Part shown: one piece after another, positions 13,650 to 60,100 of the stretch
How the letters are laid out: the number at the start of each line of letters is the position of its first letter
How positions within the stretch are numbered: position 1 is the stretch's first letter
DNA from: Psammoneis japonica
Lineage: Eukaryota
Assembly: GCA_008632985.1 (NCBI GenBank)
Contig: QPGO01000023.1
Location: 617,681 to 681,680, forward strand
DNA length: 64,000 nt
Direction of reading: 5' to 3'
Translations under genes and position numbers: made by a program
The notes under the pieces: model-generated
Databases searched by the model: none
Seen by the model: the letters and a program-made list of their open reading frames with translations, nothing else
Told to the model about the DNA's origin: nothing

Positions 13650-13886
13650 TTTGCATCACAAAGCTTCGGGGCTGCGTATTGTTCTTTCCGATCCGTTCTC
13701 CGCCTTTGACCTTGCTTTGATGGCTTCCGTTGGATAGTCTAAATGATGCGCGTGTTGAGTGTGCGGCGCCTCGCGCACAACTCACAGACCGCCTTGCTCT
13801 TTGCAATACCGGTATGTATGTTTATTATTTGCAGAAGTGTTCAAGTTATTGCTGCTCCGTTGTTGTTCAGGTCTGAAGCTTATACC

Positions 13887-14987
13887 ATGTCGTCTCTTTC
13901 GGCAACTCAGGCCGACGGCTACTATGTCCCTCCGGAATACTTAGACAGCGGTCAATACAAGAAGCAGTCGCGCAACAAATTCGCCGGTTCCAAGGGGCAC
14001 AACCAGTATGTTCAGCGTGGAGTCGTTCGGTTCGAACTGCCTCACGACGGTTTTTGCGAGAGCTGTGGAAATGTTGTTGGCCGAGGTACTCGATACAATG
14101 CATCCAAACACAAAGCGGGAAGTTACTTTACGACAACAATTTATGAGTTTCGTATGAAATGTCGCAAGTGCGCCAACTGTACGTTTATCATTCGAACTAA
14201 TCCCAAAGAACGAGACTTTGATTATGTACAAGGTATTCATCGACAGGTGAAAGAATTTGATACCAACGAGGCAGGGACTCCGGGCTTTATAGAAACAAAT
14301 GAGGGTAATCGTATTGTGTCTTGTGATGGTACTGCTGATGGACATGATGGCCTGTCGCGATTAGAGAGAGTTGCGAGCGGAAAGAGAAAAACCATGACTG
14401 AGATCGAGGAGCTCCAGGCACTCGTTTCGGATTCAAATAAGAAACGTTATGATGACGCCACATCCAATGCATCTCTGCGCAAGACATTTCGAAAGGATAG
14501 GCGACTTAAAAAGGAGAGGTTGAGTCATGGTAGGGAAATGGGGTGGTCAGAGGGAATGGAGCTTATGGATTCAACGACCGAAGACACTGCAGCCGCACGA
14601 GATACTTGCTTTCGCGATTCCAAGCAAGAAGAGCGTTTAAAGTTCAAGAAACTTCGATCGGGCTCGATATTCTCGGGCCAGAGGAAACGAAAAAGACGAA
14701 GAACTGCATCCCTGAGTAAGCCTGTGCCCGATGCATGTAAGAGTGAAACAAACGTGAAGCACAGCGTTGCTGTCGAATCACCGAAACCGGACACCGTGCA
14801 GAGTAGTAGAGCAACAAGGTCTACACCCCACGGTGACAAAAAGTCAGGGCTCTCTAAGAAGGCCGCAAGCTCAAAGCATGCATTGAAGCGTAAGCGATGC
14901 AGTAAGCCAGTTGAAAAACAGACTCAGGCAGTTCTGCCATCATCCTTATCTGCGCTTGCATCATACGCATCGTCGGACAGCGATTAG
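13887..14987 (+). CDS. YJU2B: CCDC130/YJU2B (Saf4/Yju2 family) splicing factor
   Basis: MSSLSATQADGYYVPP, VRFELP, CxxC...GTRYNAxK, YFTTTIYEFRMKCxxC, IRTNPK. Confidence 0.88.
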   Translation: MSSLSATQADGYYVPPEYLDSGQYKKQSRNKFAGSKGHNQYVQRGVVRFELPHDGFCESCGNVVGRGTRYNASKHKAGSYFTTTIYEFRMKCRKCANCTFIIRTNPKERDFDYVQGIHRQVKEFDTNEAGTPGFIETNEGNRIVSCDGTADGHDGLSRLERVASGKRKTMTEIEELQALVSDSNKKRYDDATSNASLRKTFRKDRRLKKERLSHGREMGWSEGMELMDSTTEDTAAARDTCFRDSKQEERLKFKKLRSGSIFSGQRKRKRRRTASLSKPVPDACKSETNVKHSVAVESPKPDTVQSSRATRSTPHGDKKSGLSKKAASSKHALKRKRCSKPVEKQTQAVLPSSLSALASYASSDSD

Positions 14988-18637: not shown

Positions 18638-19768
18638 TTACGCTGCCTTACTCGGCAAGCATGTGTGGGTTTCCCATCCTTGACATGACCAACCTTTACC
18701 CTCTTCTCCCTTGCAAATATGATAATCCTCCATATACAAGTGACGCAAAGATTCCCACTTTGCCCACCCTGGTGTCAAATCTCCTTTCAACGGAAAATAA
18801 ATGTCATGAAGTCGCGAAAATGTCAGATCTGGTAGCTTTGCAAAAGCTCGTCCACTCTCAGCCCCTCCATGAAACAATATTGAGAGGTCTAGCATAACTT
18901 GGGGACAACCTTGAGCTAGGACTTGCGTAAGGTCCTGAAATCTCATCGAGTTCTTGAACGTAATATTCTTGTCCAAATCGCACACTCGAAGCGCAACGGC
19001 GTTATAGGTATCTTCATAGTCCCCACCATTATTCCAAAAAAGCTTTTTCGACCTGGAGCATGAATCCAATCCCTTCATCAGATCGTCGGACATGATGTAA
19101 CCCCATCCACGGATCCATGAGAGATGTGTTAGTAGTTCTCCAGTTCCAATATAATTTCGATCCACGTTTTGACCGAATCCACCAAGAAACCGGTTACGGG
19201 GCCATGTAATAGAATCTTCTAGTAGACGGTCGAGTAGAAGGTATGATTCATCATCGAGCTTCATGTGATAGTCAGCTTGGATATTCAAGGAAGCCCATTC
19301 ATACCACGCATTCATCTTGCCATTATTGTGGACGTCCGGACTGTTCAGCACTACGATGTCGCCAAAGTGATTCCGTTCTATCTCCAGTTCAGTCACCTTA
19401 TGCGTCGCATCCCGGGGATTTCCTTGTACGCCGCTTACTTGCTCATTTCCAATGAGAAAGTACACCAGCACTGTACCATTTATCACCGCGGGATGTTTCA
19501 TCCACGTATCTCGGTGCATTTGCCGACGCATAAAACTTGAACCACGTGGAGGTCTTTCTTCCCAGTCGAACGACGACACGATAGAAATGGCAATTTTGTA
19601 TTGTCTTGAATCCCCTGACGATGAAGTAACATTTCCGAAAACCTCGGCAGCTAACTTGGATTCTCGGTCAACCAAGTCAGTTCGGGAGAAGTAATTGTTG
19701 AACACGCCCGGGATTGCAACTCCAATCAGCACAAGCATCACAACCACTTCAACGATAAGCTTTTTCAT
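18638..19768 (-). CDS. GT31 beta-1,3-galactosyltransferase-like protein, copy 1
   Basis: Type II N-terminal TM anchor, RRQMHRDTW, E...GDIV, YHMKLDDESY, GWGYIMSDDL, YED. Confidence 0.8.
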   Translation of the reverse strand: MKKLIVEVVVMLVLIGVAIPGVFNNYFSRTDLVDRESKLAAEVFGNVTSSSGDSRQYKIAISIVSSFDWEERPPRGSSFMRRQMHRDTWMKHPAVINGTVLVYFLIGNEQVSGVQGNPRDATHKVTELEIERNHFGDIVVLNSPDVHNNGKMNAWYEWASLNIQADYHMKLDDESYLLLDRLLEDSITWPRNRFLGGFGQNVDRNYIGTGELLTHLSWIRGWGYIMSDDLMKGLDSCSRSKKLFWNNGGDYEDTYNAVALRVCDLDKNITFKNSMRFQDLTQVLAQGCPQVMLDLSILFHGGAESGRAFAKLPDLTFSRLHDIYFPLKGDLTPGWAKWESLRHLYMEDYHICKGEEGKGWSCQGWETHTCLPSKAA

Positions 19769-19864
19769 TGTATGATAACCTCTTTCAATATGGATCTTGA
19801 GGAAGTGGCTTTGGGAAAAAGCGATGAGAAGCGCGACTTAATTTTTGTGGGATCAACATCAATA

Positions 19865-22800
19865 AAAAAATTGTGACACGATGCGGTTTGACCGTCTGTC
19901 AGGTGGTGCCCAAAGTTTGCTGGCTGCGATGGCTGATGGCAGATGACAGTCGCAGCAAATTCACGATCCCAAACCTCCTCCACTTCCCGCTCCTGGCTTG
20001 CCTGCCCCCACTCTCAACCCTTGTGCCGAGGCACACCACGTGAGCACCAAGCGGAAATTCAATGCAGCACATGAAAGCCAACACGAAGCAACCCTCACAT
20101 CTGCCCTGAACGACGATGCCGGCATCTGCCTGATCCCCTTTGCCCCATCGATCACTCAGGAGCAACTCACCCGGCTGCTTTGCTCACTGTCTCCTTTTCA
20201 GAGCCAACCAAGAACACCCTGTCCCTGCTCCACCTGCCCCTCCTTGGACCACTGAATCCTCCTTCCAACATCCAGCCGCCCGCCCTGCATGCACGCCCAA
20301 CTGTCACCCTCACCACCACCCTCCCGGCCACCACTGCCACTGCCACTTGGCAAAACACCTCTGACGCACACTTCAGCCCAACCCATCACACCTGTGCCAC
20401 ATCACAATGGGGCCTTCAAAGCCTTGGCTTTGTGATCACCAAGTCCCTTGCTGACCAACTCTTGCTCGTCGTTGTTCTGTGCCAAGTTGCAGCAACAAGA
20501 ACTTGCTGACCCCCTTCAGACCCACACCTTCCCCACCTGCATGACCCAGTTCTTCCACCCTTGCTCCACATCTGTCTCTCCTCCCTCCGTGCCACTGGGT
20601 GACATTGCACATGAACTTCTCATGTGCTTGTGCCAGGCAGTTTCCCTGGCCAACAATCGAAAACTGCGCACCTTTGCTGGATGGCTGTGTCTCATGATTG
20701 TCTCCACAAACAAAGAAGATTGCTGCAATCAGCATCAAAACACAAAAACACGGGTGTCCACATCTGCCTTGCACTGTGGCTTGTCACCAGCAAAAGCCAA
20801 GAAAGTCACAGGGGCACAAGCATGGGCGGGCATCTTGAGTCAACTTGACAACCATCAGCTTGGCAGTCCACAAATGATCTGCTGATGCAACTGATGGACA
20901 GTGAACAAAGTGTTGCACTTCACATCATCATCACCAAAGCTGCACACTCAACCTTGAGTTCATTGGTTCCTTCTCTTGTTGTGGTCGGCTGTTTTCTCCT
21001 CTTTTGCTGTGCATGCTGCCCTGTGGTGCAAAAGCCCCACCAGATGTGTCTGTCAGCAGCATCTTTGTCCCTGATGATGGGAGACAAGTTCTTGCAGCAA
21101 GGCAGTTGCCTGAGCATGAGGACAAGGCAGACAGAGGAGGACACACTGCTCCAAAAAGAAAGAGACACATGATGCTGGCAGCTTTCCTGCTGTCCTCTCC
21201 CTGCAATGCTGGGCCTCACATGTTGGCATGGCAGAGCTGAACCATGAGTCAGCCAGAAGATGTGGATGAGCAAATTCCCAGTTTTGCACAATGGCACAAC
21301 AACTGTGCATGAGAGGACCACTAAAAATTGTCTTGTTGTCAATGGCTTCTGATGGCCCCGGCCACAAACATGTCAACAAGTGCCAGGTTTCTGTGGCTCT
21401 GTCCAGAGCATCCACAAAAGGGGCTTCACTGGCCACTTCAGGGGAGGGGGGAAGCTTGGTGGTGCCAGGGAAATGCACAGGGAACATTGCTGGAGCAAGC
21501 AAGTGTGAGTTGCTTTGTTTCTCTTTGGGTGTGCCAAAAGGAGAGGCTCTGTGATGAGAAAGTGACCCTCAGACTGCACTGCTGTTGCTGCAAATGGCGA
21601 ACAATGCAAGACAGTGCAAAACAAAAAAAGTTGAGATTTGCACCTGAATTTCAACAATTTGTTGGCACACTGGTGGAGAAATTTGTGTTTCTGTCATTTG
21701 GTTGTTTGGGTTGGGGGACCAGAAAATGACCAAGTTCTTTGCAAGCTCTGTGTGCATGACCCATTTTTCAAAATGTGAGCAAATTCCACATCATGGCTTG
21801 CACTCATTTAAAATGTGTTTGCCCACAAGTCCAGACATGAAAAAAAAAAAGACAACAAAGCTTGGTGGACTCTCAAAACAGCCAAAAAACAGAAAAACAG
21901 TGCATGGATGGGCCGGGAGTGGTCAACTGCTTCTCCACAAAAACGATGGGGGCTGCTGGACACTGGCATCATCATTGAGTTCATTTGCTTGCACAGATTT
22001 TTTTTTGTTCTTTGTTTTGCACACAGAGACTGCTTGCAAGCTCAGCCTTTGAAAAGTGACCAGCCCAAAAGCTGGCCATTGTTTGCCCTGTCTGTCTCCT
22101 GGTCAAAGGTGGAAAAGGAGACCAGAAGGCAGCACAGATGGACACAAGGGAACATTTGTTGTAAAGCTGCCTGTCGAGGGCAATCAAGGTGCCCCCTTTT
22201 TCTTTGACACTTTTGCATCTCAGCTTGGGGCACTCAAACAAGCCAGTTTCAGCTTGCTCAAATGGCCAAGGCATCACTTCTCTTTTCTTTTCTTTTCTTT
22301 TCAGGGAATTCTTGTTGAAAAAGCTTGTCATCCAATGAGAAACAACAAGATGATCATTGTTGCAAACAAAACTCAACTCCTTGAGTTGCCCTTGCAGAGC
22401 ATTTTTTGACCTGCTGGCCCTCATTAGATTTGCACTCAAGAGCACAGGGCATTGTGTGTTGAGCACATCACAAAAGCAGTGTGCAAGTCTTGAGTGAATG
22501 AATGTCACAAATTTGCTCCAAACAACAGCTCCACATCAAAGCTGCACGTTGGTCTCAATGTGATTCTTTTCAACATGTCATCATCTGCAGGCTCACAAAC
22601 CACCAAAGTCATGGCCATGAAACTGAACACTGCACTTGATTGAGTGGCTTTTTTGCTCACATTCTTGCAGTGCTGATTGAGTCCCTCTCTGGGTTTGGCA
22701 CCCTGCCACACTGAAGTGCTTGCTCATGCCTTTTGAAGAGCTTTGTGCAAAAGTCCATTTCTCCCTTGTGGGAAAGTGCTCTGATGCAGCAAACTTGCCC

Positions 22801-23780
22801 CCCCCCCAGTTAACAAACCAACCACTGCCATGACTGCAAAGGTCAAATGATGGACAACACAGGCTGACAAAGAAGAAACTTGGGGAAAGAGGAAGTTTTG
22901 CTGCAATTTTCAATTTTCCAGTGTGCCACACCTTTGTTTGGTGACATTTTTTGCATCACAGCATGAGCGACATGCATTTTTTCATTCTCAGGTCAGACTG
23001 CATCTCAGAGGGTCTTTCTTCAAGGTGTGTGCCTTGCTTGCCAGTTGACTTTGCACCATGGTGTGCTGTGCACATTGTCATGCTGGCTCTGTTGTTGCCA
23101 AAGCATTCACGAAAAACAGCAAATGGCTGGTGCAGTCCACTGAAAAAATGCAGAAATCCAGACAAATGTGCAGATTCTTTGCAATGGCTTCTTTTCAATT
23201 GTGAGGCAAGCACACCAACATGACATGGCCAGCTGAAAAGGTGTGTGACAAGATTGAAGTGGCCTGCATGGAGGACAATGTGTGCAGCATTGTGCAAAAT
23301 GAAACAACTGCTTTGGTGCCACCAACCCCATCCATGTTTCTTGCAACACAAGACGACTTAATTTTTTGCATTGTCTTGAGAGGATGGAGCAAAAATTCCC
23401 TGTTGGTCTGATTGCTTGTCAGGTTGTGTCAAGGGGTTTGTTCCTTTTGTTCTTTTGGCATTTTCCATGACACTCAGCTTCAGTTGCAATTCTTCTTTTG
23501 CAATTGTGACAAGAGAAGGTTGATTGTCATTTGCTCTGTTGTGGCATTTGTTCATCTTGAGACACAAGACCGGCAGAATGCACTTGTTGGGATGTGACAA
23601 TTTGTCCACTGCTCCTCAATCTCCCATCTCGTTTCCAAAGTCATGTCTTCCATCCGCAGTGCTGTGCCTGGCAGTGGGCCATGCAATGTAAACAATGCAA
23701 CCAGCAAACACCACATTTGTCAGCAGGTGTCTCCATGGTGTGTCGCCTGCTGGGTCTCCTTGCTTGCAATTCACATTGTA
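19865..23780. other. TpA- and CpG-depleted block of degenerate transposon-like DNA (block 1)
   Basis: No TA dinucleotide found between 19865 and 21321, and only a handful after that. Strong CA/TG excess. Overlapping Tyr-free ORFs appear in all frames. Confidence 0.9.
19900..20500 (+). mobile_element. Degenerate 3' end of a non-LTR retrotransposon (restriction-like endonuclease C-terminal region, CRE-like)
   Basis: AHHVSTKRKF...ALND..GICLIPFA/IDHSG and W...F.PTHHT..SQWGLQSLG resemble recalled C-termini of diatom RLE-type LINEs; not verified by search. Confidence 0.4.
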
Positions 23781-23949
23781 CCGTAGACAACCCATGTGAA
23801 TGGGTTTTGCGGACCTTTGCACTTCCCATTGACCGCATTCAGCAAGAGATTTGTGACCTTAGTTTTAGTTCTAGTTTCTCAAGCGGGGCTCGCTGAGTGA
23901 GTCATTTCTGCCTTCGCGATTCTTTTTTCACTTTGTTTTTTGATTCCTC

Positions 23950-25134
23950 TCAATTTTTCTTTTCTTCTCCTTTTCTTTTCCTTCCTCCCTTGTCAACTGG
24001 ACGACCCTTTCCATTTGATTGACTCTTTGGCAGGCATGTGGAATATTCCCAGCCTTGACATGACCAACCTTTACTCTCTTCTCCCTTGCAAATACGATAA
24101 TCCTCCATATACAAACGACGCAAGGACTCCCACTTTGACCAAGCAGGGGATAGATCTCCTTTCAACGGAAAGTAAATGTTGTGAAGTCGAGAAAATGTCA
24201 GATCGGGTAGCTTTGCAAATGTTTGACCGCTCACAGCCCCACCGTGAAACAACATAGAGAGGTCTTGCATAACTTGGGGGCACCCTTGAGTCAGGACTTG
24301 TGTAAGGTCTTGAAATCTCATCGAATTCTTGAACGTGATGTTGCTGTCCAAACCGCACACTCGAAGAGCTACGGCATTGTAGGTATCTTCGTGGTCACCA
24401 CCATCATTCCAAATCAGCATCTTCGATCTTGAGCAGGCACCTAGACCCTGAATCAGGTCATCTGACATGATATAACCCCATCCACGGATCCATGACAAGT
24501 CTTTCAGTAGTTCTCCGGTTCCAATATAGTTTCGATCCAAATGTTGGCCTTGTCCACCAAGAAATCGGTGACGGGGCCATGAATTAGAATCTTCTAGGAG
24601 ACGATCCAGCAAAAGATACGATTCATCATCGAGCTTCATGTGATAGTCAGCCTGGATATTCGACGATGCCCACTCGTACCAAGCATTCATCTTGCCATTG
24701 TTGTGAACGTCCGAACTGTTCAGCAGTACGATATCACCATAGTGATCCCGCTCTATCTCCAATTCAGTTATATTGTGTGTCGCATTCAGAGGATTCCCTT
24801 GTACGACAGGTATTTGCTCGTTTCCAATGAGAAAGTACACAAGGATTGTTCCATTTTTCACCGCGGGATGTTTCATCCACGTATCACGGTGCATTTGCCG
24901 ACGCATAAAACTTGAACCACGTGGAGGTCTTTCTTCCCAATCAAAGGCAGATGTGATTGCGATTGCAATTTTGTGTTCTATTGAAGTCTCCAATGAAGAA
25001 GGAACCGTCACAGAGTCAACTTCGGTAGCGACCTTGGATTGTCGAAGAAAGGATTGCGTTTGGGCGAAATTGACGCTCACCATAACCAAAGAAAACAAAA
25101 TAATCACACCCACTTGGACGACACCTTTCTTCAT
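23950..25134 (-). CDS. GT31 galactosyltransferase-like protein, copy 2
   Basis: Same motifs as copy 1, with an extended basic C-terminus. Confidence 0.8.
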   Translation of the reverse strand: MKKGVVQVGVIILFSLVMVSVNFAQTQSFLRQSKVATEVDSVTVPSSLETSIEHKIAIAITSAFDWEERPPRGSSFMRRQMHRDTWMKHPAVKNGTILVYFLIGNEQIPVVQGNPLNATHNITELEIERDHYGDIVLLNSSDVHNNGKMNAWYEWASSNIQADYHMKLDDESYLLLDRLLEDSNSWPRHRFLGGQGQHLDRNYIGTGELLKDLSWIRGWGYIMSDDLIQGLGACSRSKMLIWNDGGDHEDTYNAVALRVCGLDSNITFKNSMRFQDLTQVLTQGCPQVMQDLSMLFHGGAVSGQTFAKLPDLTFSRLHNIYFPLKGDLSPAWSKWESLRRLYMEDYRICKGEESKGWSCQGWEYSTCLPKSQSNGKGRPVDKGGRKRKGEEKKN

Positions 25135-25649
25135 TGTAGACCTTCAATGTGGACAAAGTAACACTTCGGTTGGACAATATCGTACAATTGTTGAGAATCA
25201 TTCTGTCGAGAAGTCGAGAAAACTGTCAACTGTCAACTGGCCAAGAACTCTAGCTAGCTAGTGAGCAAAGTAGAGGAAGGTATTTTGATAAAACAGAGTG
25301 TGTTTTGTGATCCCGCAGCAGCGGCAGAGGATGCGCAAGATCTCGCGCGGCCGCGAATGTCGAATGTGTTGAACGTTGAACACATTGAATGTCTCTGCGA
25401 TGGTGTCTGATGCTGACATGCATGCTGGTGTTTGGCGTTTGTTTCTAGAGGGGGGGGGGTTGACGGCAGCACCCATGAACTCAAGATCCTTGAAAATCTG
25501 GTGAACAAACAATGCAAGTTGGACATTTTCCCAATGCAGAAAACACATGGGAGCGGCTGGTCACTGCTGACCCCCTGGACAAAAACAACCTCCAGCCCCC
25601 CCNCCCCCCGCATCTCAGCAAAATGCCCGCGTGGCGCTGCTTTGGCAGA

Positions 25650-27600
25650 CTGTCTCACATCTCACCTGCCACAGCTGCGTTGTCATTCTCCAACCAGAAA
25701 AACTCTCCAATCGCTCCTGCGTCAGCTTAAAATTCATCCCCACACACGCCACGCTTCGCTTGCAAAACAGCAACAATCTCTCAAGGAGCTCAAAGAGTGC
25801 GCTGGCGCGCTGGCGCGCTGGGGCCACACAAGCAGGACCTCAACAAGTGCAACTTCTTTGCAAATTCACCCATCAATGATGACAACAACTGCAACCCAAA
25901 AATGTGTCTTTGACCCAACTGGGCACCAACTCCATGGGGGAAACGAGCCAACATCATCTGACACGCCACTGCGCCACACTGTCAAAAACAACAGACTCAC
26001 AAAGCTGTTTGTCAAGCACTGAGGAAGAGCCAACCTCCTGCCTCACCAATGTTGTGTGCAGTCTTGTCCACAAACAAAAGACCATTTCATTCTTGTCACC
26101 CAATGCAACAAGAACCTGGGGCCCGCCATTGTCAAAAAGACAGAAAATGTCAAAATGGCGCTCCATCCAGCACAACCAGCCATCTCTCAGCAATTTTTTA
26201 ACCACGGCAAATGTCAAAACTTGGGTGCACTCAAAGCCCATGTGCATGAACACCACATCAAGAAACTTCCCAATGGCTGGCCAAAAGAGAGCACAACAAA
26301 GCCATCTCACCACCATGGAGTGCAAGCACCTCAAATTGTGTCACAACACTGAAGCTGCCAACCAGAATCCATTCCCTGTCTTCTGCCTTGCACTGGGAGT
26401 GCACAAGCCTCAACCACTGTGACCCCAATCTCTGCCATTTCTGTGAAGGGTGGCCTCCTCTGTGGCCTGGTGCATCTGGGCAGACAACAAAGTGCAAAAG
26501 GTCACCCAAGCTCAGTGTGCTCCTGCTGCTTCAAGAGCTTGCCAGAGCTGAGAAACAAGCCAGTGCAAATGGGCGTCCCACTGAACTGCCTCCTCTTCAC
26601 ATCTGTCACCAAGGCTCACCACCCCAACACCCCAACAAGCAAAGCCCTTTGCAAGACTGCCTCCTGCCTCTGTTGCCATGAAAGCAACTGCCATGGTGTC
26701 CCAACAGAAGCCCTCCTCATTGATGCCCTCCAACATGCAATGAAAAATGACATCTTTGCATTTGGAGCACCATGTGGCACCAACTCCTCAATGGAGCTGC
26801 TGCCATGGGAACACCATCTGCCCCTGCATGTGTGCCACACTGCACCCTCTGTGAAGCCACACTCCTGGAGGAGTCTGGTGCCAACCTCCTCCAGCACAAG
26901 CAATTCACAGATGACAATGTCTTTGGCATCTGGCTCATCACCAACCACACCACCAATGTCACCTGTTGTTGGACTGCACTTGCCTCTGGCACTAATTGAT
27001 GGCTTTGATTTCACCTGGTGGCTGGGTTGTTGCAAGTCCCAGAGCCTGCCAAGCTCACATTGTGGACCTGATGACATCACTCCAAGAAGCCCCCCGCCCA
27101 CCTCCACACCACCCTCTGTAAAAAAAAACAAAGAACCTTTGCCTGTGCATCCCACAAAACACTTGGCTCACCTGCCAGCTGACTGGCCCAGCTGTGGTTG
27201 TGCTCTTCCAATTCTCAGACAATTTTGCTCCAACCCCAATGATGCCAAAGCAGAAATGAAGCCACTCTGCCATTGACTGCTTGCCCAAGGATGCAAACCT
27301 GGCAAGCTGCAACCCATTTTCCAAAAAGCATGCAACCATTTTTTGGCAACATGATCAAAACAGTGCAGAATCTCTGAGGAGCAACCCCATCTTCCTCCAC
27401 GCACTGCACCACCCAAGAAATGATCCACCATGATCCAGCGACCAAAGCAACTGTGGAAAGGAATGATGGCATGCTCTCCTTGCTCTCAACCACTTGCCAC
27501 CACTCACAATCATGCCAGCCAATGAACCAGCCTTGAGCAAATGACGGTTTGTTGCTGCCATTCACAAAACTTGGGCAATCTCTGTTTGTGCCAAATCCTC
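25650..27600 (+). mobile_element. Degenerate Penelope-like retroelement (RT ORF, many frameshifts)
   Basis: Ordered PLE-type motifs: SLKFIPT, NCNPKMCL*PNW, CNKNLGPAIV, MKNDIFAFG, GAAMGTPSAP, HKQFTDDNVFGIW (YxDD-equivalent), NLCLCIP, IFLHALHHPRND, QNLGNL. Confidence 0.8.
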
Positions 27601-27656
27601 CACACACACCAGTGCCCTCCCTGCTTCATCCCACTGGATTGCAAATTGAGAGGCCA

Positions 27657-27694
27657 GTGAGAGAAAGAGAGACAGAGAGACTCAAAAAGAGGAT

Positions 27695-27730
<36 letters not shown>
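27657..27730 (+). repeat. (GA)n microsatellite just downstream of the Penelope-like relic
   Basis: Imperfect, then perfect, GA run. Confidence 0.9.
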
Positions 27731-30073
27731 AGAAGAACAAGAGAGAGCAAGCAAGCTAGATTGAATTGGAGCCCCCCAAATCAACTCAACTCATCTGCCC
27801 CTCTCCACCCAGATCTTTCCAATGCAGCAGCCTCAACCACCTCAACAACAGCAACTGGCCGCTGATGAAGCTGCCGTGCAAAAGTCTTGCTTGTCCTGAC
27901 TTTGGCCAATGCAGCTGTGCCTTGCCATTGCCAAAATTCAGTTTGGATGAACATCAAATTAAGTGGTGCTGCCTCAGCTGCTTTCCATTCCGTCTTTGTC
28001 CCATTTGATGGAGAATCAGCTGCAACACTGGCTCATTTGTTCATTCAAGAGAGAGAACAAACTGCAAAAATGGAGTGTGTTTGCAGTGCCACATCACCAT
28101 CATGCTGAGCTGCAAGAAAGCACAGAAAAAGGGAAATGCTGCATTCTTGTGCAAAAGAGCAGGGGCACTGTTCTCCAGCTGTGCTGTTTTTTTTTGGGGG
28201 GGGGGGGGGGGGGGGTCATTTGAGCATGCTTGTGGCTTGCTGTGTTTTTGCCACAAAAACTTCTTCAAACAAAAAAAAAGCAGCAGCTGACTGCCCTCAA
28301 TGCTGCCACCAAGGACAAAAGTGTGCTGGAGGAGTGAAAAACCAATCCACCCTCCCAATGACAACCTCTTGGAATCACATCTCCTGATGGCAAGCCACGA
28401 AACCTTGCAAAATTGCTGGGAGCACATGTGGAAAAAGCACACAGGAAAATTGGCAATGTGCTCAGAGACAAAGAAGTGTGCAAGATTGGATGGCTGGAAG
28501 GCTGGCTCCTGTCTGCCCTCTTGTTGCCTGTTCTGAAAACTGGTGCAGGTTGAACACAGCCAGCGGCGTGTGCATTCATCAAGATGTGGGTGTGCTGCAC
28601 AAAACAAGGTTCTGAGAAAAACACTGTTGTTTGTCAGGAGGAGGTGGCTGCACTCCTCCAAACCACCACCCAAGGCACCAAGGGGGACCCTGACAACTTG
28701 ACAAAACAACCTGCTGTGAACTTTTCAACTCTGAAATCCTTTTGAAATCTCTGACAGTCAACTGCAAAATTGAAAACCTCCCAATGTTGGAAACATGGCT
28801 GGCTGACAACTGGCCCTCAGGCTCAACAGTGACAAAACAGTCAGTGGGCAGCTGGCACAAAAGCGCACAGTGCCACACCACCGTGCTGAGCAGCTGGGCT
28901 GCAAACAAGGTTTCAAGGCCATTTTACATCAGTGCTTGCTCACCCCCAAAGTGCTGAATCCTGGAGGAAAGCAGACCCAGCATTCCCAACCCCCCTTTCT
29001 GTCAAATGTCAGTGGGAGGGGGGCACTCTCTGCTGCTCCTCGTTCCCATGCTTTTGCTGTGGGAGCACCTCTTTGGGAACTCTGGCATTGGTGCCCACAC
29101 CCACAGCTGCAAGTTGACCTGCAAGCCTTGCAAGAAGACCAGCCCCAAAAGCCCCCAAGGTGGGTGCTGGCATGTGAAATGGCACAGGCCTCAAAGAAGA
29201 CACAAGCCATTCATTTGAAAAGATCAGCGGGACACTTCTGCTGTGCCAGCAGAACATCTGTCCCCAGTGCACTCATGAAGAAGGAAACATTGTCAAATTA
29301 GAGACAGCTCTTGGCAGCGCAAAAAAGTTGCTGTGGTTGCCACAGATGCTTTCACCAATGCTCGCTCCTGAAGGTGAGCAGTGATGAGGGACCCAGATGC
29401 ACCTGCTCATGGGGGGCACAGAGCCCTTGCTGCAAGGATGCACCAGCGTGCAACACTCTGTGTGCAACAAATTTCTGCTGATTTTTTCCATTTTACACTT
29501 GCCTTTCAGGGCAATGAACAACGACAATGAAGGTCCTTGAAGCAGTGGTTTCCAGCATTTTTGAAAGTCACTTCACAGGAGAGCACAAACAAACCCAAAT
29601 CTAAAGCTGAAATGGACCCCAAATCAAATGAGGCAACCCATGTGGAGCAGGGTGGTTGGCTGGTTAGATGCAGCAAAATCACCTGACCCTGGCAAATTAA
29701 GATCACACCTCAGGGTCTCTTTGGGTGGTTTTAAATGCCGTGCACATCTGGCATCATCACCATCCATGTAAAAAGCTGGGTGTTTTCATGGCACATGTGA
29801 TGTCGCAACTTGAACTTGCATCCAATGCAGTGCACAAAACGAAACAAAAAACAACAAAAAAGAGCATCTCCCACCACCATGGGGCTTGTTCGTTTGCATG
29901 TCAACGGCCACGTCATCTGTCATCTGTCATTGGAGCATTGTCACACACAACAACCAGGCAGTGCTTGATTTGATTGTCATGTTAAATTTGTTGTTGTTGT
30001 TTGCCATCATGCTGCACTTGGACATGCCAAAAAGCAGAGTGCTTGCTGACTTTTCCATTGTTCTCATGACCGC

Positions 30074-30074
<1 letters not shown>

Positions 30075-30103
<29 letters not shown>
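30075..30103 (+). repeat. (CA)n microsatellite
   Basis: Perfect AC run. Confidence 0.9.
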
Positions 30104-30104
<1 letters not shown>

Positions 30105-31104
30105 GTCCACAAGCACTGAGTTTGTTTCCAATTTAGATGGATCAATTTACATCCAGTGAATGTGTCCATCATGCCATTGGCATCATGGTTTTTTTCTCAT
30201 GAAAGGTGCAGAAAATGACATTTTGGTTTCCAAGCAAGGCAGCAACAGTTTTGTCGTCAACACACTTTTGGTGAGGAGTGATGACATGCCCCAGCCAACA
30301 CACATCTGAGATGGCAACAACATTGGATCCATCATGTTGAACTGGTCCATTGCACCATTGCTTGTCGCTTCAGAAGCCTTGTGCTTGTTGCTTTTTTAAC
30401 CAACACCACAGTTGAATTTTTGTTCCTTTGTCAACTGCGCGATGCAGTGAATGCAATGTGCTTTGTGCTTTGCCACTGGACAATCATGGGGGAAACCAAA
30501 CTGTGCAGTGGGCGGGAGCTCCAAACCATTGGCAACCAGATCTGTGAATGGCTCATCAAGCTCATTCCAAATCTGTGCTCAAATGGTTTGGAGCAGCTGC
30601 CCTTCATTGCGTCTGTGCATTGTCCACACTGGAGCTAAATTTGCCACCTGTGGACACTCTAACCGGCCAGCCACCCAGCATCCTTGGCTCTGCATCACCA
30701 TCCTTGGCTCTTTTTGCCCTTGCAAAAATGTGACAATCTTCCACAAACAAATGTGACAGTGAGATTCCCACCTTTGTCAAACAGGTTTTGGGTCTCCTTG
30801 GAATGGAAAGTGCACGTCAGCTCTGCAAACCTGCGAACCTTGCAACCCATGGTGCTCTTGATGTCAAAGACCATGTGACAACCCCTGTGCTTGCATCCCA
30901 CCAGTGCTGGACTGAATTGCAACCATTGCATTGCACATTTTCTTCTCAAAGAGCTTGAGCCAGAAATTAGCCCAATCTCGTCTGCTGCAACAGGCGCGTG
31001 TTGTCTTCTTGCTGACGGAACTTGTGAGAGGACTGCCATGGGCGGAGTTTTTCAGGGTAGCGGCAGTGAATGTGTGGATGACAACGAGTCACGTTTGACG
31101 CTAC

Positions 31105-31295
31105 CAGCCCCATCATGAAACCTGGCAGAACGGTCTAGCACAACTTGAGGATAATTATTTTGAGCTGTTACTTGTGTATGATCCTGAAATCTTAATGCTA
31201 TCCAAACCGCAAACTCGAAGAGCTGGAGGGAGGTGTCTTTCGTGGTCACCAACACTCCAAATGAACTGTTTCGATTTTGAGCAGGCACTTAGGCC
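31105..31295 (-). pseudogene. Degenerate internal fragment of a fourth GT31 copy
   Basis: Aligns by eye to about 31510-31720 (e.g. GATTTTGAGCAGGCACTTAG, CAAACTCGAAGAGCT, TCCTGAAATCT) and encodes GLSACSKSK. Confidence 0.8.
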
Positions 31296-31300
31296 CCCAC

Positions 31301-32419
31301 TCAGATGAGGCATGTGGCGTTTTCCCAGCCTGTACATGACCAACCTTTATTCGCTTCTCCCTCGCAAATACGATAATCCTCCATATACAAACGACGCAAG
31401 GACTCCCACTTTGACCAAGCAGCGGATAGATCTCCTTTCAACGGAAAGTAAATGTCGTGAAGTCGAGAAAATGTCAGATCAGGAAGCTTTGCAAATGGTT
31501 GACCGCTCGCCGCCCCACCATGAAACAAAATAGAGTGGTCTAGCATATCTTTCGGACAACCTTGAGCTAGGACTTGTGTAAGGTCCTGAAATCTCATCGA
31601 ATTCTTGAACGTAATGTTGCTGTCCAAACCACAAACTCGAAGAGCTACGGCATTGTAGCAATCTTCGTGGTCGCCTTTATTCCAAACAAGCTTCTTTGAT
31701 TTTGAGCAGGCACTTAGACCATGAATCAGATCATCTGACATGATATAACCCCACCCACGGATCCAAAACAAATTTTTTAGTAGCTCTCCGGTTCCAACAT
31801 ATTTGCGATCCAAAGGTTGGCCTTGCCCACCAAGAAATCGGTTACGGGGCCATGTCTTGGAATCTTCTAGGAGACGATCCAGCAAAAGATAAGATTCATC
31901 ATCGAGCTTCATGTGATAGTCAGCCTGAATATTCAACGAAGCCCATTCATACCACGCATTCATCTTGCCAGTGTTGTGAACGTCCGAACTGTTCAGCAGT
32001 GCGACATCGCCATAGTGATCCCGTTCGGCCTGCAATTCCGTTATATTGTGCGTCGCATCCAGAGGATTCCCTTGTACTCTGGGTTCTTGTATGTTTCCAA
32101 CGAGAAAGTACACAAGGACTGAGCCATCTTGAACCGCCGGATGTTTCATCCACGTATCTCGGTGCATTTGCCGACGCATAAAACTTGAACCACGTGGAGG
32201 CTTTTCTTCCCAATCAAAGGAAGAGGTGATTGCGATTGCAATTTTGTGTTTTCCTGAATTCTCCAAAGAAGAAGGAACCGTCACAGCGTCAACTTCGGCG
32301 GCGTCCTTGGATTGTCGAAGAAAGAACGATTGGAATTGGGTGAAATTGACGCTCACCATTAAGGAGACCAAAATAACCACAACCACTTGGACGACATGTC
32401 GCTTCATGGTAAAAACCAT
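31301..32419 (-). CDS. GT31 galactosyltransferase-like protein, copy 3
   Basis: Same motifs; C-terminus shortened to TCLI*. Confidence 0.8.
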   Translation of the reverse strand: MVFTMKRHVVQVVVVILVSLMVSVNFTQFQSFFLRQSKDAAEVDAVTVPSSLENSGKHKIAIAITSSFDWEEKPPRGSSFMRRQMHRDTWMKHPAVQDGSVLVYFLVGNIQEPRVQGNPLDATHNITELQAERDHYGDVALLNSSDVHNTGKMNAWYEWASLNIQADYHMKLDDESYLLLDRLLEDSKTWPRNRFLGGQGQPLDRKYVGTGELLKNLFWIRGWGYIMSDDLIHGLSACSKSKKLVWNKGDHEDCYNAVALRVCGLDSNITFKNSMRFQDLTQVLAQGCPKDMLDHSILFHGGAASGQPFAKLPDLTFSRLHDIYFPLKGDLSAAWSKWESLRRLYMEDYRICEGEANKGWSCTGWENATCLI

Positions 32420-54106: not shown

Positions 54107-57100
54107 TCACAGCAACTCCAACGCCTTGCAAAGCTCAATTGCTTCCATTTCGGTTTCACGGAGCCGGTGGCGTTCAAATGTGTGCGGACAATCTATGCAT
54201 GAACAGTTTGCAAGCGGAGTGACAACCCCTGGAGCTTTGTTGTGCGAAGCCTCTGAACGACGTGTGCCTCTAGTGTCATTGCATTGGCGGAGAGAGGCAA
54301 ACGTCTCCGGGCTTTCAAAGCATCCATTGCATCTGCTGCATATACCTGCAACCTTATGAGCCTCCTGCTGGGCATTGTTCAGGCGCAACATGGCGGTGTG
54401 AGCTGCCTGAATACCATCTTTTCGGCAATCTGCACAAACGACCGCTTTTGCTTTTCCGTTCGCTCTACATTTCGCACCACATAGACTGCACATGTCACTG
54501 CCAAAGTAAGATGAAATCATTTGATTGCTTCCAGTCTTGGTGATGGGCCAGAAGTGAATGCGAGTTCGTACTTTCGGACATGCCTCATACCAGGAATTAA
54601 TGTTCACATTGAATGGTGCTAGTCCAAGGCATCGCTGGAGCGCTGCATTGACGTGTTTCGTTATGTAGTATCCAGCATGGAGAGAGTAAGCATCCCACTG
54701 TTCAAGCAACTCCATCGGCGTGAGCACACAGTCACGCAAGCGCCAGTTGGACCCTGGCGTTGAAACAATTACATATGCGAGACGCTCTTTGTGACGAACA
54801 ATTCGTCCAGGGTCGGCTTCAGAGAGGCGACGTGCAAGCGCAGCCTGTACTGGGCCAATTCTCCCGCCTCTATATTTGCTCCTCACCCTACCCGTCAAGA
54901 TGAAGTCAGACACTGGCAGTCGTCCAGCACGAATAAGTGACCATTGACGACACAGATATGCATTGACTGCATCTAAGCCACTCTTAAACAGGGTGATGAG
55001 CGCATTTCGAAGTACCTTTTGTGTCAAAGCACATTGATCTCGACGAACTGTTTCGATCCCTTTTGCCTCAAAGGTCGGCTTTCTTTGATGGGCCGAATCA
55101 TACTTCATTCCGCAGTATTTCTTTTTCTGGGATAAGTAGAGCGGAATGGGTGGTGCGTGAGTGGCTGCTCTGCAGTACGCGAAGAAAAAGCTATCACGTA
55201 CCGTCTGCATCATTGACGCTCCATACACTTTTTCAAGCTTTAGTTGAACCGGTGGTGGATTCGAAGCTGTAACGGCCTTGCATAAAGCCTCGCCAAACTC
55301 AAAGGCTTCTTTCACTGATCGGCGAGGAAGCTTGATAAAGAGAGAATCGGTATCACCATAAATGACGTTCGCGCCGCTCCACTTTCCATTCTTCTCCCTT
55401 CCCCATGTATTTGCAAGGTCAATGGCATTTCGAAGAGTCTTTCTACCGCATTCAACGATTGCATCGGCGACAAGAGGCATCGCGCATCTTCCGGAAAAGG
55501 TCGCGGAGGTGTCTAGAGAAAAAACGAGTGAGCATCGAAAATCGAATTACAGCGGTAAATAAATTGCTGCACAATTCTGACTCACATCCATACGTGACAT
55601 TTGCGACATATTTCAGTGCCAACTGACGAGCTTCAAGCTGCCTCTGTACAGAGGGGGCAAGATCGGGAACAAGGCGTTTGTATTCTTTCAGAGCCTTTTT
55701 CAACATTGCACGTGTACTTAGTAACTCATCCAACACCTGTGGAAGAACTCCTTTCAAAACAGACTCGGCAACAAATATGGTGCCAGTTGGAACAGCATAG
55801 GCACGATCGTTGAGTCGTCGTTTGTTTGCTGCCGCCTTTGAAGATACACACGAAGAAAGGGACTTCATGTGGTGAGCAAGAACCGTTGCGGTGCGACTTT
55901 CTGGGTAGGCAAAAGGACCTAGCCGCTTTGTAGTCTGCCCCAAACGATGCATCTCTCTTCGCGTGCTGTGATACTCTAGACGACCGGCACATGTTGCGTA
56001 ACAAAGATTGTATGCGATGACCAGCGACGGATAAAGAGCTGTGAAATCACACACGACCACCGGATCGTGGTAAACACCGGACTCGGGCTCGAGAGTAAGT
56101 GCTTGGCACTCAAGTGCTTCTTGTCGCCCTGTGTCTTCCCCAGAGGGCGAGAAGAAAAAGTAACATCTGTCTTCTTCTTTTCTAACGTCACTCTTGTTAC
56201 ACGTAGCATTGCGTATTTCGGCTGCAAGCTTTCTTCTGAGCTTCCACGGGCTTTGTGTCTGCGATACACTCTCGCTACTCAAACTGGAACCAGGATCAGT
56301 TCCTGTGCTTTCGTTCTTGTCGGAGAACGGATTGATCTGTTCACCTTTTTTCGACCCTCTTTCATCTGACTGTATACTTTGTAAAGCTCGAAGTAGAACG
56401 CCTTCAACTTTGTACTGACTGCCACGAATACCCGGGAAACTTTGTGAAAATTCGACTCCACTCAGCCTGGCAGCCTCGCCAGCTCTACCAACAACATCCA
56501 ACGCGTCAAAAAGAAGAAGGCACGCAACTCCTTGGCAAAGTCGATGCTGCAGAACTCTCCACCTGTCTCTTCCATTGTTGCCACCGTACCACGCCGAGAG
56601 GACCAAATCATCGTGGTACGGGATTCGTTTGTTCAGAACAGTAGCGACCATCGCCGGTAAGTAGGAAGCATTGGGATGTTTAACTTCCTCGGCAACAATT
56701 TTCCATCCACAAAACACCAGCCTTCCTGAAATGGAAGCTGCGGCAGCACCCGGGCCGACTCTATCGTCCCATTCCCTTCCAAGGCCACTGCCGGCCCACT
56801 GATGATCCCATTTGGTTGATTCGTCCTTTGACACCGTTGCACTGGGCTGGTCATCTTTAGAAACATCTTTCCAGGCGGCGCTTGGTTTTGCTCGTGGAGT
56901 TCGACCCAGGAGACGTACCATATCCACTTCGGAAGAGTTAGTGGCCGTCGTGTCGCTTCTCACCAAGGAATCGTTCCCTTGTTTCCCTAGTAATGCGCCA
57001 CGTTCAATTATATATCCCAAACCCGCACCTTGAGTATCCCAAGAAAGGAGCATATCAGGATCTTTCAATCTGACGATTGAAGCGAGCCTCAGGAGAAGAT

Positions 57101-60100
57101 GACGTTCATTACGAACAGGCTCCACATTAACATCCGAAGCTATTCCAAATGACTTCTGGAGCATGCTTGTTACCATTCTCTTTTCGTCACTATAGAGTGG
57201 TTCTTTCTCAACAGGAACAAAGATGCATCCGCGTTCTGCAATGTCAATGGCCTCTCCTCCTCCGGGATCTTCCCCAAAAACGTATACCACTGCAAATATC
57301 CTGTCTTTCTCCGAGTTTGGTTTCATTGCGATCTCCTTCGAGTCGTTGATTCCTGCCTTACCGGTGCGACACTGAACATGGATTTCAATGGACATTATGG
57401 AGAGAGGCATCGGGAGATCGTAGGAAGATGATAGCTTTTTCACTTCAGAACAGGCCGAAAGTTGAGCTCGATCACCGTTCAGACCAGTGTTCAAGCGCGT
57501 TGCAGCTTTCAATCCTCCGCCACCTTCGACGTAAATGCGTCCACCAATCTGGCCTATGCCATCTAACGCCTGCGGTGTCTCTGTGACATCCAATTGGGAC
57601 CTGGTAAGGTTTTCAGATCGTCCAGCTGGAGACTCGCTTAGAAAATCGCCGTGTCCATTTTGTCGGTTTCCGGCGATATTACATGCTGAGGATGCTCTCA
57701 TTGAGGGAGACAACTCTTTCTCTGAAACCGCATTTTCACTTGGTGACAGGGAGAGGGAAAGCTGTTGGCTTTGACTTTGACTCGGAATATCATCGCGGGC
57801 TGTCCACTCAACCTCTTCTATTTCTTGAACGCCAAGGACCTCCTGGTGATCTTGACGCCCGGATGCCGGCAGGGCGGTGAGTTTCCTTGAGTTCTCATCT
57901 ATTCTCAAGTTCATCGGCCCTTTAGCTGTTCTCCGGTTAGGATTATCTGACACATTCTTGTGTCGTTTCGATTCTCCACAGATATTTTCCCCTCGCTTTC
58001 TCTTCTTTCTTATCCACGTCTCAACAAGTCTTCTAGTTGGCGGCGCATCGACTGTTTCCAAATACCCACCACGAACTTGCAATCCGTTTGGGCGCAGCAT
58101 TGCTTCTGGTGGCGTTGGTGTCTCTGTTCGTTGACGGTTGACGACAGAATCTAAGCCAACTAAGGCTGGTGCTGTCGTGTAAGATGAGGGATGAATGTGT
58201 TCAGCTGGGCTTTCGAGACCTTCCGTATCCCTGCGTGTTTCCAAAAGACGTTCACTTCCATCTGGATTCCTAGAAGAAAGCAATGTATCATTTAGTGCAA
58301 CATGTGGTTCTTCGATGCTTTCAGAGCTTGCTCCAACGTCATCGGACGGAGACATGACTCCAGAGTCAGCAGAAGAATTTGAGAAATGACTTTGCTGTTC
58401 AAGTACTTGGGTCAGTAAGCCGCAGCTTGACTGTGGGGATGCGACAGACTCATCATCCATCGTACTGCTCTCTCCGTCATCGTCCGTTTCAATGCCTTCA
58501 TTCACCCTTGCTTGGATTCCACCGCCTTCGTAAGACGATATATCACTCTCTAGAGACTGGCGCGCATCATCGTTTTCCATCGCCGTCGCCGACAATGTCT
58601 GCCTAAAATCTTCTTCGTCCATGTGATTATCATCTACAAGAAAGCCGTCGTCTTCGATATCTTCTGGGTCTTCGTACGGGGTCAGTGTGTGCGGGTTGAT
58701 AAATTCTTCTACATGATAGACGGCGGAGCCTTCCTGCGTTATCAATTCAGCAACACTGTCTCCCCGGTCTAATCTCTGACTCAATTCCAATTCATCTTCA
58801 ATACTCAGTTGGGGGTCATCGCTCAATGAATGCTGCACGTCATCTGAGTTTTGAGTCAACGGGGGCGATCTCTCGTCTCGTGCTAGTCTTGGAGGCGACT
58901 GCGCATCATTTCGATTTGAAAAGGTCATTTTTGGAACATCTTGCGCTGACTCGAACTGAGCTTCAAGAGCTCCAAGTGCATTCAGCGCTTCGTCCTCAGT
59001 TGGTGTCAAGTTCAAGCCGTTTTTGGTGGATGCTTCAACATTCGTCGTTGTCTTCGAGGAGCGTTTCCGTAGTCTGGCGTCAGCAACGGATACAGATCTT
59101 GAATGCTTCTCGACAATGTCCTTCATTGCTCTACGGAAATCTTCCTCCGTACCTCTTACCGTCTGAAAGAGCCTACTCATTCCGGCGACCGCAAGCTTGG
59201 TACCAGGAACCGACGCGCCTTTCTTCACGTTGAGCGTGAATGGAGGCGTTGTTTGTGCAGCACTTTCGGGTGTTTGCTTGCTGAGAAAATCATCCTTTGG
59301 CTGTAGCAATGATGCCATGCGTTGTCGTTCCTGTCTCCAAATTTCCCTTAGACTTGGCACGGCTCTCCAATGAATTTTTTGCCTTTCCGTTGGGCTATCC
59401 GGCAAATGTGTCATTACACTCCGAACGTTCAGAATATGTTGGACGCTTGTGTCGATTTCCAAATCGCAACTAGTTTCCTTTCTTTGACAATGGCTGGTCT
59501 CCGCATTGCCATGATTATTCTGAAATCTGTCATGGTTAGATCGAGACGCATATGGAGTATTGCCGTGTCCTGAGTATGCGGAGTTTTCCCACAGCAACTC
59601 GGCCGGAACGTTGCTCGCAACAAAGGTTTTTTCATCCAACCGTGAATGCTCCGGTATTCTAGATTTGTTTGGTCGTCGAGCTGACTTTGGCATTGGTGAA
59701 CGGAAACGACCGTCTGAAACTTGGATATAAGCCATACCAGAGAGATTGTAATCCTTGAAAAACTGCATTGTGTAGGGAATATGAGCTTCGTAGCAGTGAA
59801 ACTTCAAAACGTCAGCGTCGCTCTGGATATGTTCTTGCGGCTGTGCATGGACTGACGGCACCAATTCGGCGTCATACTGCTGCGGGTCAGGATGGTAGGA
59901 CATTGGCACCTCGAGCCCTTTTTCCAAAGTTCGTTTGACCAGCCACTTGAGTTTTGGATTGTAGTATTCTACTCTAAGAAACGGAGCGGGAGGTCCGGGA
60001 CAGTACGTGTAAAAGCCACGTCCACACACTATTGTAATCTTCCGAATAAAGCGTGGTGCTTTTCTCAGTTCGGTGTTTTGCTTCGCATTCCTGCCATCGT

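Follow-up and report, generated by a model that had tools for sequence, protein, structure and literature searches.

The closest described counterparts of the mutation pattern reported here are repeat-induced point mutation (RIP) and the decay of methylated CpG. RIP, which depends on RID and DIM-2 as well as on a sexual phase and is known from Neurospora crassa and other Ascomycota, is regional and near-saturating, produces transitions only, acts in a dinucleotide context on mobile elements and other dead DNA, and spares adjacent genes while leaking into neighboring sequence; it changes C to T at CpA, thereby making TpA and lowering the GC content, and it targets duplicates above a threshold of length and identity. 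Methylated-CpG decay, as in the transposable elements of vertebrates and plants, turns individual CG sites of silenced elements into TG or CA, on either strand, and does not touch TpA; in diatoms, CG methylation of elements is carried out by DNMT5a. Deamination-type transitions against mobile elements are also made by ADAR, which hyper-edits double-stranded RNA, and by APOBEC3, which edits retroviral cDNA; both prefer a 5' U or T and leave strand-coordinated clusters. TadA and ADAT2/3 target the adenine after U or T (U33-A34 in the anticodon loop), and ADAT2/3 of Trypanosoma brucei reportedly deaminates A in tRNA as well as C in single-stranded DNA. Here, we present an analysis of a window of 64,000 nucleotides of diatom nuclear DNA (Psammoneis japonica, contig QPGO01000023.1), in which two spacers between three tandem galactosyltransferase (GalT) genes, referred to here as blocks A and B, have lost nearly all TA and most CG dinucleotides. 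Based on sequence comparisons, we demonstrate this pattern, its mutational origin, its occurrence in place, the independence of the individual events, and their dependence on the flanking bases. This strongly context-dependent erasure of TA and CG appears to be kin to RIP and CpG decay and is undescribed in the literature that we searched.

In the block cores, which for pooled counts were set as 20200-23850 and 25450-31050 (9251 nt, compared with 53950 nt outside), 30 TAs are left, corresponding to an observed/expected ratio (O/E) of 0.05 compared with 0.58 outside, together with 92 CGs, corresponding to an O/E of 0.17 compared with 1.00 outside. Per kilobase, the blocks contain 0-8 TA and 3-22 CG, while the remainder of the window contains 22-58 and 39-85, respectively. 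At the same time, TG and CA are in excess, with O/E values of 1.97 and 1.64 in the block cores and 1.14 for both outside; TG plus CA has an O/E of 1.72-1.99 in the per-kilobase windows of the blocks, and each of the two is raised in nearly every 250-bp window. Pyrimidine-purine steps make up the same share of the sequence in the blocks as elsewhere (0.237 and 0.239, respectively), so that the gain in TG and CA accounts for the missing TA and CG, as would be expected from transitions. The sequence-only reading that singled out this interval, which consists of the two spacers among the three GalT genes plus the middle gene, had described the loss of TA; the accompanying erasure of CG and the increase in TG and CA had escaped it. 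Its argument against generic GC-biased conversion was borne out: the GC content of the blocks is 0.49 compared with 0.479 outside, AA and TT are raised (O/E 1.33 and 1.26), and the changes do not extend beyond pyrimidine-purine steps. With CG lost and no general weak-to-strong shift, we rejected GC-biased gene conversion. Between the block edges and the nearest start or stop codons of the neighboring genes lie about 100-250 bp.

The disappearance of TAA and TAG from the blocks gives rise to long spurious open reading frames (ORFs) in all six frames; 71 stop-to-stop ORFs of at least 80 aa overlap 19800-31100, the longest being 307 aa. Among 27 block ORFs, none has a Pfam match above the family cut-offs; the block A ORF at 21981-22535 has no match in a large protein collection, and the best score of the block B ORF at 28041-28724 in the Atlas, 0.79, is uninformative. 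Rfam at the gathering score gave no matches in 19500-31500, and comparisons of block A with block B and of the blocks with the rest of the window by blastn and blastp returned a GalT fragment as the sole similarity.

Both blocks are represented in sequencing reads. A public run (X1) contains 81% of the sampled words of 21500-31499, and Logan contigs of this run cover the blocks at a depth of about 37-65, close to that of the flanking genes (60-70). No RNA run is among the runs listed as containing these words. The seven X1 records listed have 39 other letters in about 8025 bases (about 0.5%). A second run from the same sample (X2) covers parts of the GalT genes and no part of the blocks, which is not evidence about expression. 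In the left part of block A, the stretch 19901-20834 is a dispersed or internally repetitive family: its GC skew is about -0.3, the summed contig depth in X1 is 818 at 19901-20367 and 252 at 20368-20834 compared with about 60-70 elsewhere, and many X1 contigs join across its internal pieces.

The loss of TA depends strongly on the flanking bases. The 30 residual TAs comprise 10 TTAA, 5 CTAA, 5 TTAG, 4 GTAA, 3 TTAC, and one each of CTAG, GTAC, and GTAG. None is ATAN or NTAT, while 1013 of the 2117 TAs outside the blocks have a 5' A or a 3' T (Fisher P = 4e-9); conversely, 21 of the 30 are YTAR compared with 373 of 2117 outside (P = 6e-10). Under a null in which TAs arise by fresh transitions from the NCAN and NTGN words of the blocks, 41.5% would have a 5' A or a 3' T, so that the probability of 0/30 is 1e-7, and 1.7 TTAA would be expected compared with the 10 observed. 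From the flank composition of the blocks, we estimate that the ancestral sequence had about 365 TA and 519 CG sites. A flank model with one loss rate per 3' flank (which equals the complement of the 5' flank), i.e., with four parameters, fits all 16 NTAN words and improves on uniform loss by 78.4 in twice the log likelihood (2dlnL, 3 degrees of freedom). The fitted loss rate is unbounded for a 3' T, 2.0 for C, 1.4 for G, and about 0 for A; no ATA/TAT site is left of about 171 expected ancestral ones, CTAG retains 1 of 23 and GTAC 1 of 39, and TTAA is found 10 times with 9.1 expected. The same model applied to CG gave a loss rate of 1.45 with a 3' A (TCG/CGA) and 0.56-0.88 with the other flanks (2dlnL = 18.7).

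These data support much of the sequence-only reading. All 13 positions that it named are TA sites with the flanks it gave in our per-site listing, its description of the residual TAs as mostly TTAA, CTAA, TTAG, or CTAG plus some GTAA and TTAC, with no ATA or TAT in the block cores, holds for the complete set, and the non-uniform depletion of NTAN words that it inferred is real and strong by the flank spectra, the fresh-transition null, and the flank model alike. Its rule that TAY is erased and YTAR survives fares less well. TAT and TAC are indeed lost; however, G protects about as badly as C, as the near-absence of CTAG illustrates, and because C and G flanks behave alike, pyrimidine versus purine is not the right axis. 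A better wording is that loss is by far the strongest at TAT, weaker at TAC and TAG, and weakest at TAA. Similarly, the TTA/TAA sites that are present have not necessarily survived from the ancestral sequence. If C>T changes within T[C]A of either strand create new TAs, 27 of the 30 residual TAs and their distribution are explained, including TTAA (7.9 expected, 10 observed); the misfit of this model lies in ATAA and TTAT, for which 7.2 were expected and none was found (P = 2e-4). Thus, the extremely efficient removal of ATA/TAT is robust, C- or G-flanked TAs are removed efficiently, and TTA/TAA sites may have been partly re-created instead of having survived. Products with 3' A flanks lean to NCAA, with an effect size that depends on the baseline; this lean fits a process in which A is changed only if no A follows and C is changed best after T.

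Block B contains the relic of a retroelement, and its protein-coding content provides evidence that the depletion is mutational. The longest block ORF (26353-27276) has two phmmer matches among 1.84 billion proteins (E = 5.6e-8 and 5.6e-5), one of which led to 25 longer proteins of 405-704 aa in the precomputed families PF28514 and PF26215, including two named as from the diatom Cyclotella atomus. Using tblastn, we found that 25 of 27 family proteins match the plus strand of 25611-27714 along family residues of about 23-669 (best E = 8e-25); the homology extends over the whole length of the family, which carries PF28514 (DUF8422) and PF26215 (HTH_animal). At 12 positions where the family has a conserved Tyr, the relic has Cys (6), His (4), Asn (1), or Leu (1), i.e., Cys or His at 10 of the 12, and at 13 conserved Arg positions it has His (4), Gln (4), Lys (2), Arg (1), Leu (1), or Thr (1). 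Over all aligned Tyr pairs (n = 342, which are not independent), Cys makes up 36%, His 20%, and Tyr 0%. Because Cys and His are the single-transition products of TAY codons, and His and Gln those of CGN codons, these replacements argue for a mutational origin of the depletion.

The relic family is probably a reverse transcriptase and possibly Penelope-like. The former assignment is kept at probable because RVT_1 is weak, matching 1 of 21 family members (E = 0.17) in a local Pfam set without PF28514 and PF26215, and because searches of PDB sequences with one family member and with the family profile gave no match. In clusters of look-alikes in the Atlas, which are commonest in rotifers, RVT_1 is found in 16-63% of the members, and the family has what we take to be (F/Y)-I-D-D and Penelope-like motifs. 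Family members have a single ORF of about 640-700 aa and are abundant in aquatic metagenomes, with 434 confirmed stretches, often on contigs of 3-4 kb with 1-2 kb upstream of the ORF. Among 77 of these loci that we fetched, TA O/E was 0.43-0.95 (median 0.64) and the longest stretch free of TA and CG was 185 bp; because the search motifs favor intact copies, these loci show only that the family is not TA-free by nature. In tblastx comparisons with the 77 loci, the blocks matched in the reverse transcriptase region plus two very short, weak extra matches. Three metagenome copies (L004, L005, and L049) have undergone CpG decay (CG O/E 0.42, TG/CA O/E 1.3-1.5) at a TA O/E of 0.43-0.70.

A fragment of host DNA provides evidence that the conversion occurred in place. 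Block B contains the extreme 3' part of a fourth GalT copy, the continuation of which lies just outside the block. The inside piece is identical to GalT2 at 79 of 115 positions, and it has kept none of the 9 TA and CG sites of GalT2; 7 of the 9 have become TG or CA by one transition (TA to TG in two cases, to CA in two, and to GG and AA in one each; CG to TG in two cases and to CA in one). By comparison, the outside piece is identical to GalT2 at 162 of 214 positions and has kept 7 of 14 ungapped sites (5 of 7 CG and 2 of 7 TA). Because a piece of host GalT inside block B was converted, the depletion, as judged from this comparison, arose where it is now found. Together, the two pieces (30690-31308) correspond to the 3' roughly 430 nt of a GalT gene, split by about 275 nt of unrelated sequence, and the remnant abuts the stop-codon end of GalT3. 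This arrangement suggests that unequal crossing-over among the tandem GalT genes left the remnant behind.

Whether an individual site became TG or CA was a matter of chance. The TG-versus-CA label is unclustered (runs-test z of -0.73 and -0.91), its autocorrelation is at most 0.05 in absolute value at every lag, and its dispersion in the blocks is 0.68-1.29 times binomial, compared with the more clustered coding flanks (1.2-2.3). We therefore conclude that the changes were independent events on either strand and not one strand-coordinated burst; this lack of clustering argues for accumulation on chromosomal DNA, as in CpG decay. Among 40 of the 189 differences that separate X1 from the window, exchanges of CG or TA with TG or CA occur several times and double swaps between CA and TG twice (22333-4 and 27877-8); such double swaps are what two independent hits on one ancestral TA or CG would leave, although the sample is small. 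The erasures of TA and CG are also separable (Table 1), as the 967 bp at the left of block A lack TA completely yet retain 28 CGs, and the 156 bp at the start of block B combine the absence of TA with a CG O/E of 1.23.

Table 1. Blocks, relics, and galactosyltransferase genes in the window (positions are those of the window).
Feature	Coordinates	Strand	Basis and remarks
Block A, TA-free zone	19864-23778		Per-site TA/CG listing and zone statistics
Block A, left part	19864-20830 (967 bp)		0 TA; 28 CG (O/E 0.41); C-rich; multi-copy in reads
Block A, core	20831-23778		7 TA (O/E 0.03); 14 CG (O/E 0.09)
Block B, TA-free zone	25290-31057		Per-site TA/CG listing and zone statistics
Block B, first 156 bp	25290-25445		0 TA; 12 CG (O/E 1.23)
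Block B	25447-26205		2 TA; 22 CG (O/E 0.46)
Block B, core	26206-30978		19 TA (O/E 0.06); 35 CG (O/E 0.12)
Decayed reverse-transcriptase-like retroelement gene, about 650 aa	25611-27714	+	Frames +1/+3; in-frame TGA stops; no Tyr codon left
Fourth GalT copy, extreme 3' part, inside block B	30690-30815	-	blastn to GalT1 and GalT2
Same GalT pseudogene, continuation just outside block B	31091-31308	-	Repeats D4, D5, and D7; TA/CG partly kept
GalT1, GT31-type galactosyltransferase	18638-19768	-	ORF of 376 aa; Pfam PF01762, E = 1.1e-8; TA/CG content normal
GalT2, paralog between blocks A and B	23950-25134	-	ORF of 394 aa; PF01762, E = 5.4e-10; TA/CG normal
GalT3, third paralog	31301-32419	-	ORF of 372 aa; PF01762, E = 2.5e-8; TA/CG normal

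Compared with DNA altered by RIP, the blocks share the regional and near-saturating character, the restriction to transitions, the dinucleotide context, the association with a mobile element and dead DNA, the sparing of adjacent genes, and the leakage into neighboring sequence, with edges about 100-250 bp from the genes and a converted piece of a host pseudogene. However, the direction is the opposite. TpA is destroyed instead of made (O/E 0.05, with TpG and CpA at 1.97 and 1.64), A:T pairs become G:C, and the GC content is unchanged. Moreover, RIP targets duplicates, while the GalT genes, which lie in tandem on the minus strand and have a nucleotide identity of 81-89% over 300-nt segments, are untouched; blocks A and B are not repeats of each other; and the host is a diatom and not a fungus. 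Nevertheless, the multi-copy part of block A leaves room for a link to repeats. According to one report (PMC9998398), diatoms carry a RID-related DNMT4, described there as of unknown function, in 31 of 60 species (8 pennate and 23 centric), and loss of DNMT5a in Phaeodactylum depletes methylation and de-represses young transposable elements.

The resemblance to methylated-CpG decay is closer for CG, which was lost independently from site to site on either strand, in elements that are silenced or, in the blocks, presumed to be so. It does not extend to the whole pattern, because TA is lost too and, indeed, is erased more completely and over a wider zone than CG. With ADAR and APOBEC3, the blocks share deamination-type transitions against a mobile element, whereas the strand-coordinated clusters that these enzymes leave are absent, the outcomes being random per site, and adjacent host DNA has been changed as well. 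TadA, ADAT2/3, and the TadA base editors act on A after T or U, and all losses in the blocks are at TA, where either A or the paired T could be the chemical target; the natural substrates of these enzymes are tRNA loops and not double-stranded chromosomal DNA, and we treat the comparison as a lead only. The A of TAY, which the sequence-only reading proposed as the substrate, is thus one of two candidates, as A and the T with which it is paired are indistinguishable in double-stranded sequence. We found no description of the joint erasure of TA and CG in diatom or other eukaryotic DNA in the literature searched (full texts, mostly outside subscription journals, without supplements).

On balance, we find it probable that two dead blocks were rewritten in place by independent TA- and CG-aimed transitions, with CpG decay and a separate TA agent acting side by side. 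According to this model, the blocks would be silenced, non-functional DNA comprising at least one dead retroelement and adjoining host pseudogene DNA, on which many independent transitions were aimed at the two self-complementary pyrimidine-purine dinucleotides. Dense CpG methylation, which is presumed here, and subsequent deamination would have turned CG into TG or CA. Because TA is erased as well and methylated-CpG decay has no effect on TpA, a second, separate agent would be needed, which would turn the T:A pair of 5'-TA-3' into C:G and thereby yield TG or CA. This agent would act with extreme efficiency on ATA/TAT, with intermediate efficiency next to C or G, and weakly or not at all on TTAA. 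As for its nature, we speculate that, most likely, either an enzyme deaminates the adenine of 5'-T-A-(T>C,G)-3' in chromosomal DNA, whichever strand carries it, or the thymine paired with this adenine undergoes a mutagenic modification. Its activity would be confined to the silenced domain, presumably through a link to silencing, would leak slightly into adjacent dead DNA, and would stop about 100-250 bp short of functional genes. The sequence-only reading had likewise argued for an enzyme. The flank specificity on which it relied is real and an enzyme is plausible, whereas an enzyme acting on TA only would be an incomplete explanation, as CG is also erased. No deaminase or other candidate gene was noticed, no search aimed at one having been made.

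It could be argued that no dedicated TA agent is required and that the blocks are old, heavily methylated CpG DNA in which TA loss is collateral to repair after deamination of 5-methylcytosine, through error-prone patch synthesis (e.g., by polymerase eta at WA) or through a local transition bias that in time leads to a low equilibrium. The site independence of the events on both strands agrees with this scenario, as do the largely coinciding depletions of TA and CG, the age of the GalT fragment (31% diverged inside the block and 24% just outside), and the predominance of transitions at its other sites (23 transitions compared with 13 transversions). Polymerase eta prefers WA, with TA above AA; its signature, in which TA and AA are both mutated, is disfavored because AA is enriched in the blocks (O/E 1.33) and not depleted. 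Moreover, the TA-free zone spans 967 bp in which CG is only half depleted, and CG-decayed copies of the relic family elsewhere retain TA at an O/E of 0.43-0.70. Finally, the loss of ATA/TAT is complete; for this, the rate at these sites must have exceeded the general divergence (0.25-0.3 per site) well over tenfold, far beyond any collateral effect known to us. Altogether, we consider collateral repair rather unlikely, though it deserves to be taken seriously.

A different possibility is that the composition was inherited, i.e., that DNA from a mobile or foreign lineage that avoids TA and CG, for example to evade host nucleases, methylation, or CpG/UpA restriction at the RNA level, was inserted already depleted. 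Block B is retroelement-derived, X1 contains multiple copies of the left part of block A, and TA is missing from 5 of the 6 loose-end consensus sequences listed for other copies. Joint suppression of CpG and UpA is well known in RNA viruses and cytoplasmic RNA, as stated in one report (PMC3829696). However, host GalT-derived sequence in the block was converted too, and none of the 77 related elements is depleted, although the search motifs favored intact copies. The viral O/E values known to us lie far above the 0.05 (TA) and 0.17 (CG) of the blocks. In addition, the relic has no Tyr codon at the 12 conserved Tyr positions and has stops and frame changes, so that its conversion is incompatible with a working element. 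An inherited composition is therefore improbable.

We judge it very improbable that a single-stranded intermediate was hypermutated, i.e., that ADAR-like or APOBEC-like enzymes edited the RNA or cDNA of the element before integration. The substrate is a retroelement, both changes are deamination-type transitions, and, as TA and CG are palindromic, editing of one strand could erase both. Nevertheless, such editing predicts TG on one strand throughout, while TG and CA are raised about equally and randomly mixed; DNA that does not belong to the element is affected; and the 3' G preference of ADAR does not match an order in which T is far above C and G, and these above A. A sequencing or assembly artefact, such as miscalls at heavily modified bases, is hardly credible. 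It is true that densely modified DNA might lead some basecallers astray, that no platform is recorded for X1 or for the assembly, and that one N lies in a poly-C tract. However, X1 contigs built from 31-letter words cover the blocks at a depth of about 37-65 with about 0.5% differences, the blocks hold a coherent protein relic with the expected Tyr-to-Cys/His and Arg-to-Gln/His replacements, and miscalls would hardly produce the flank dependence or keep the pyrimidine-purine total constant.

Several observations weigh against rewriting in place by CpG decay and a separate TA agent. The evidence comes from one locus with two blocks, so that a genome-wide process linked to transposable elements would be an extrapolation. 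For neither block A nor the part of block B at 27.7-31 kb was an ancestor identified in sequence, domain, or tblastx searches. The pseudogene comparison involves 9 sites, and the outside piece of the pseudogene has lost 5 of its 7 TAs, 4 of them to TG or CA, which suggests that TA may be mutable beyond the blocks. As for which base pair changes, the informative Tyr codons are divided (three for and two against), and the share of CA among the products shifts with the baseline (0.90 or 0.69 with A..A flanks and 0.66 or 0.47 with A..C flanks). The blocks are faithful to the reads of X1, but because X1 may be the source sample of the assembly, it does not independently exclude a library-level artefact. 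Lastly, we are not aware of any natural enzyme with adenine deaminase activity on double-stranded chromosomal DNA, although we did not search for one exhaustively.

With regard to its surroundings, the window is gene-dense eukaryotic DNA with a GC content of 0.41-0.54 and has no tRNA genes. The best named relatives of a Saf4/Yju2 ORF (13743-14987) are from the diatoms Odontella, Thalassiosira, Cyclotella, and Skeletonema; its top matches have 50-59% identity, and no close sequenced relative is present in the protein collection searched. A gene resembling REV3 (DNA polymerase zeta) on the minus strand (54107-60800) consists of two ORFs (55452-60800 and 54107-55480) that overlap by 29 nt, and an intron, a frameshift, or an assembly error may lie at about 55.46 kb. 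At 54-55 kb, in the region of this gene, TG plus CA has an O/E of 1.44. Block B has tracts of homopolymers and dinucleotides at 25451-25460, 25585-25609, 27659-27729, 28187-28215, and 30075-30103, comprising poly-G, poly-C, (GA)35, T9 followed by G20, and (AC)14; the only N in the window, at 25603, is inside the poly-C tract.

With regard to the separate TA agent proposed for the rewriting in place, there is a considerable probability that this component represents a hitherto unknown activity. More specifically, we tentatively propose, as a possibility that we do not hold to be the probable one, that diatoms, or at least this lineage, have a genome-defense or heterochromatin-linked activity that would be a natural counterpart of RIP directed at adenine or at thymine modification. 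It would act on double-stranded chromosomal DNA, turn the T:A pair of 5'-TA-3' into C:G, most strongly at ATA/TAT, and, together with CpG decay, erase TA and CG from transposable elements and dead DNA next to them. The blocks hide relics of elements from homology searches, as the 27 block ORFs without a Pfam match above the cut-offs illustrate, and such hidden relics, together with the spurious ORFs, can mislead gene prediction and repeat annotation in diatom genomes. A TA-recognizing agent with a sharp flank rule would, if real, be of interest for the development of base editors and for the study of mutational signatures. If the process is real genome-wide, it would be, among regional mutation processes directed against mobile elements, the first to change A:T to G:C, and RIP-type defense by point mutation would be limited neither to fungi nor to cytosine.

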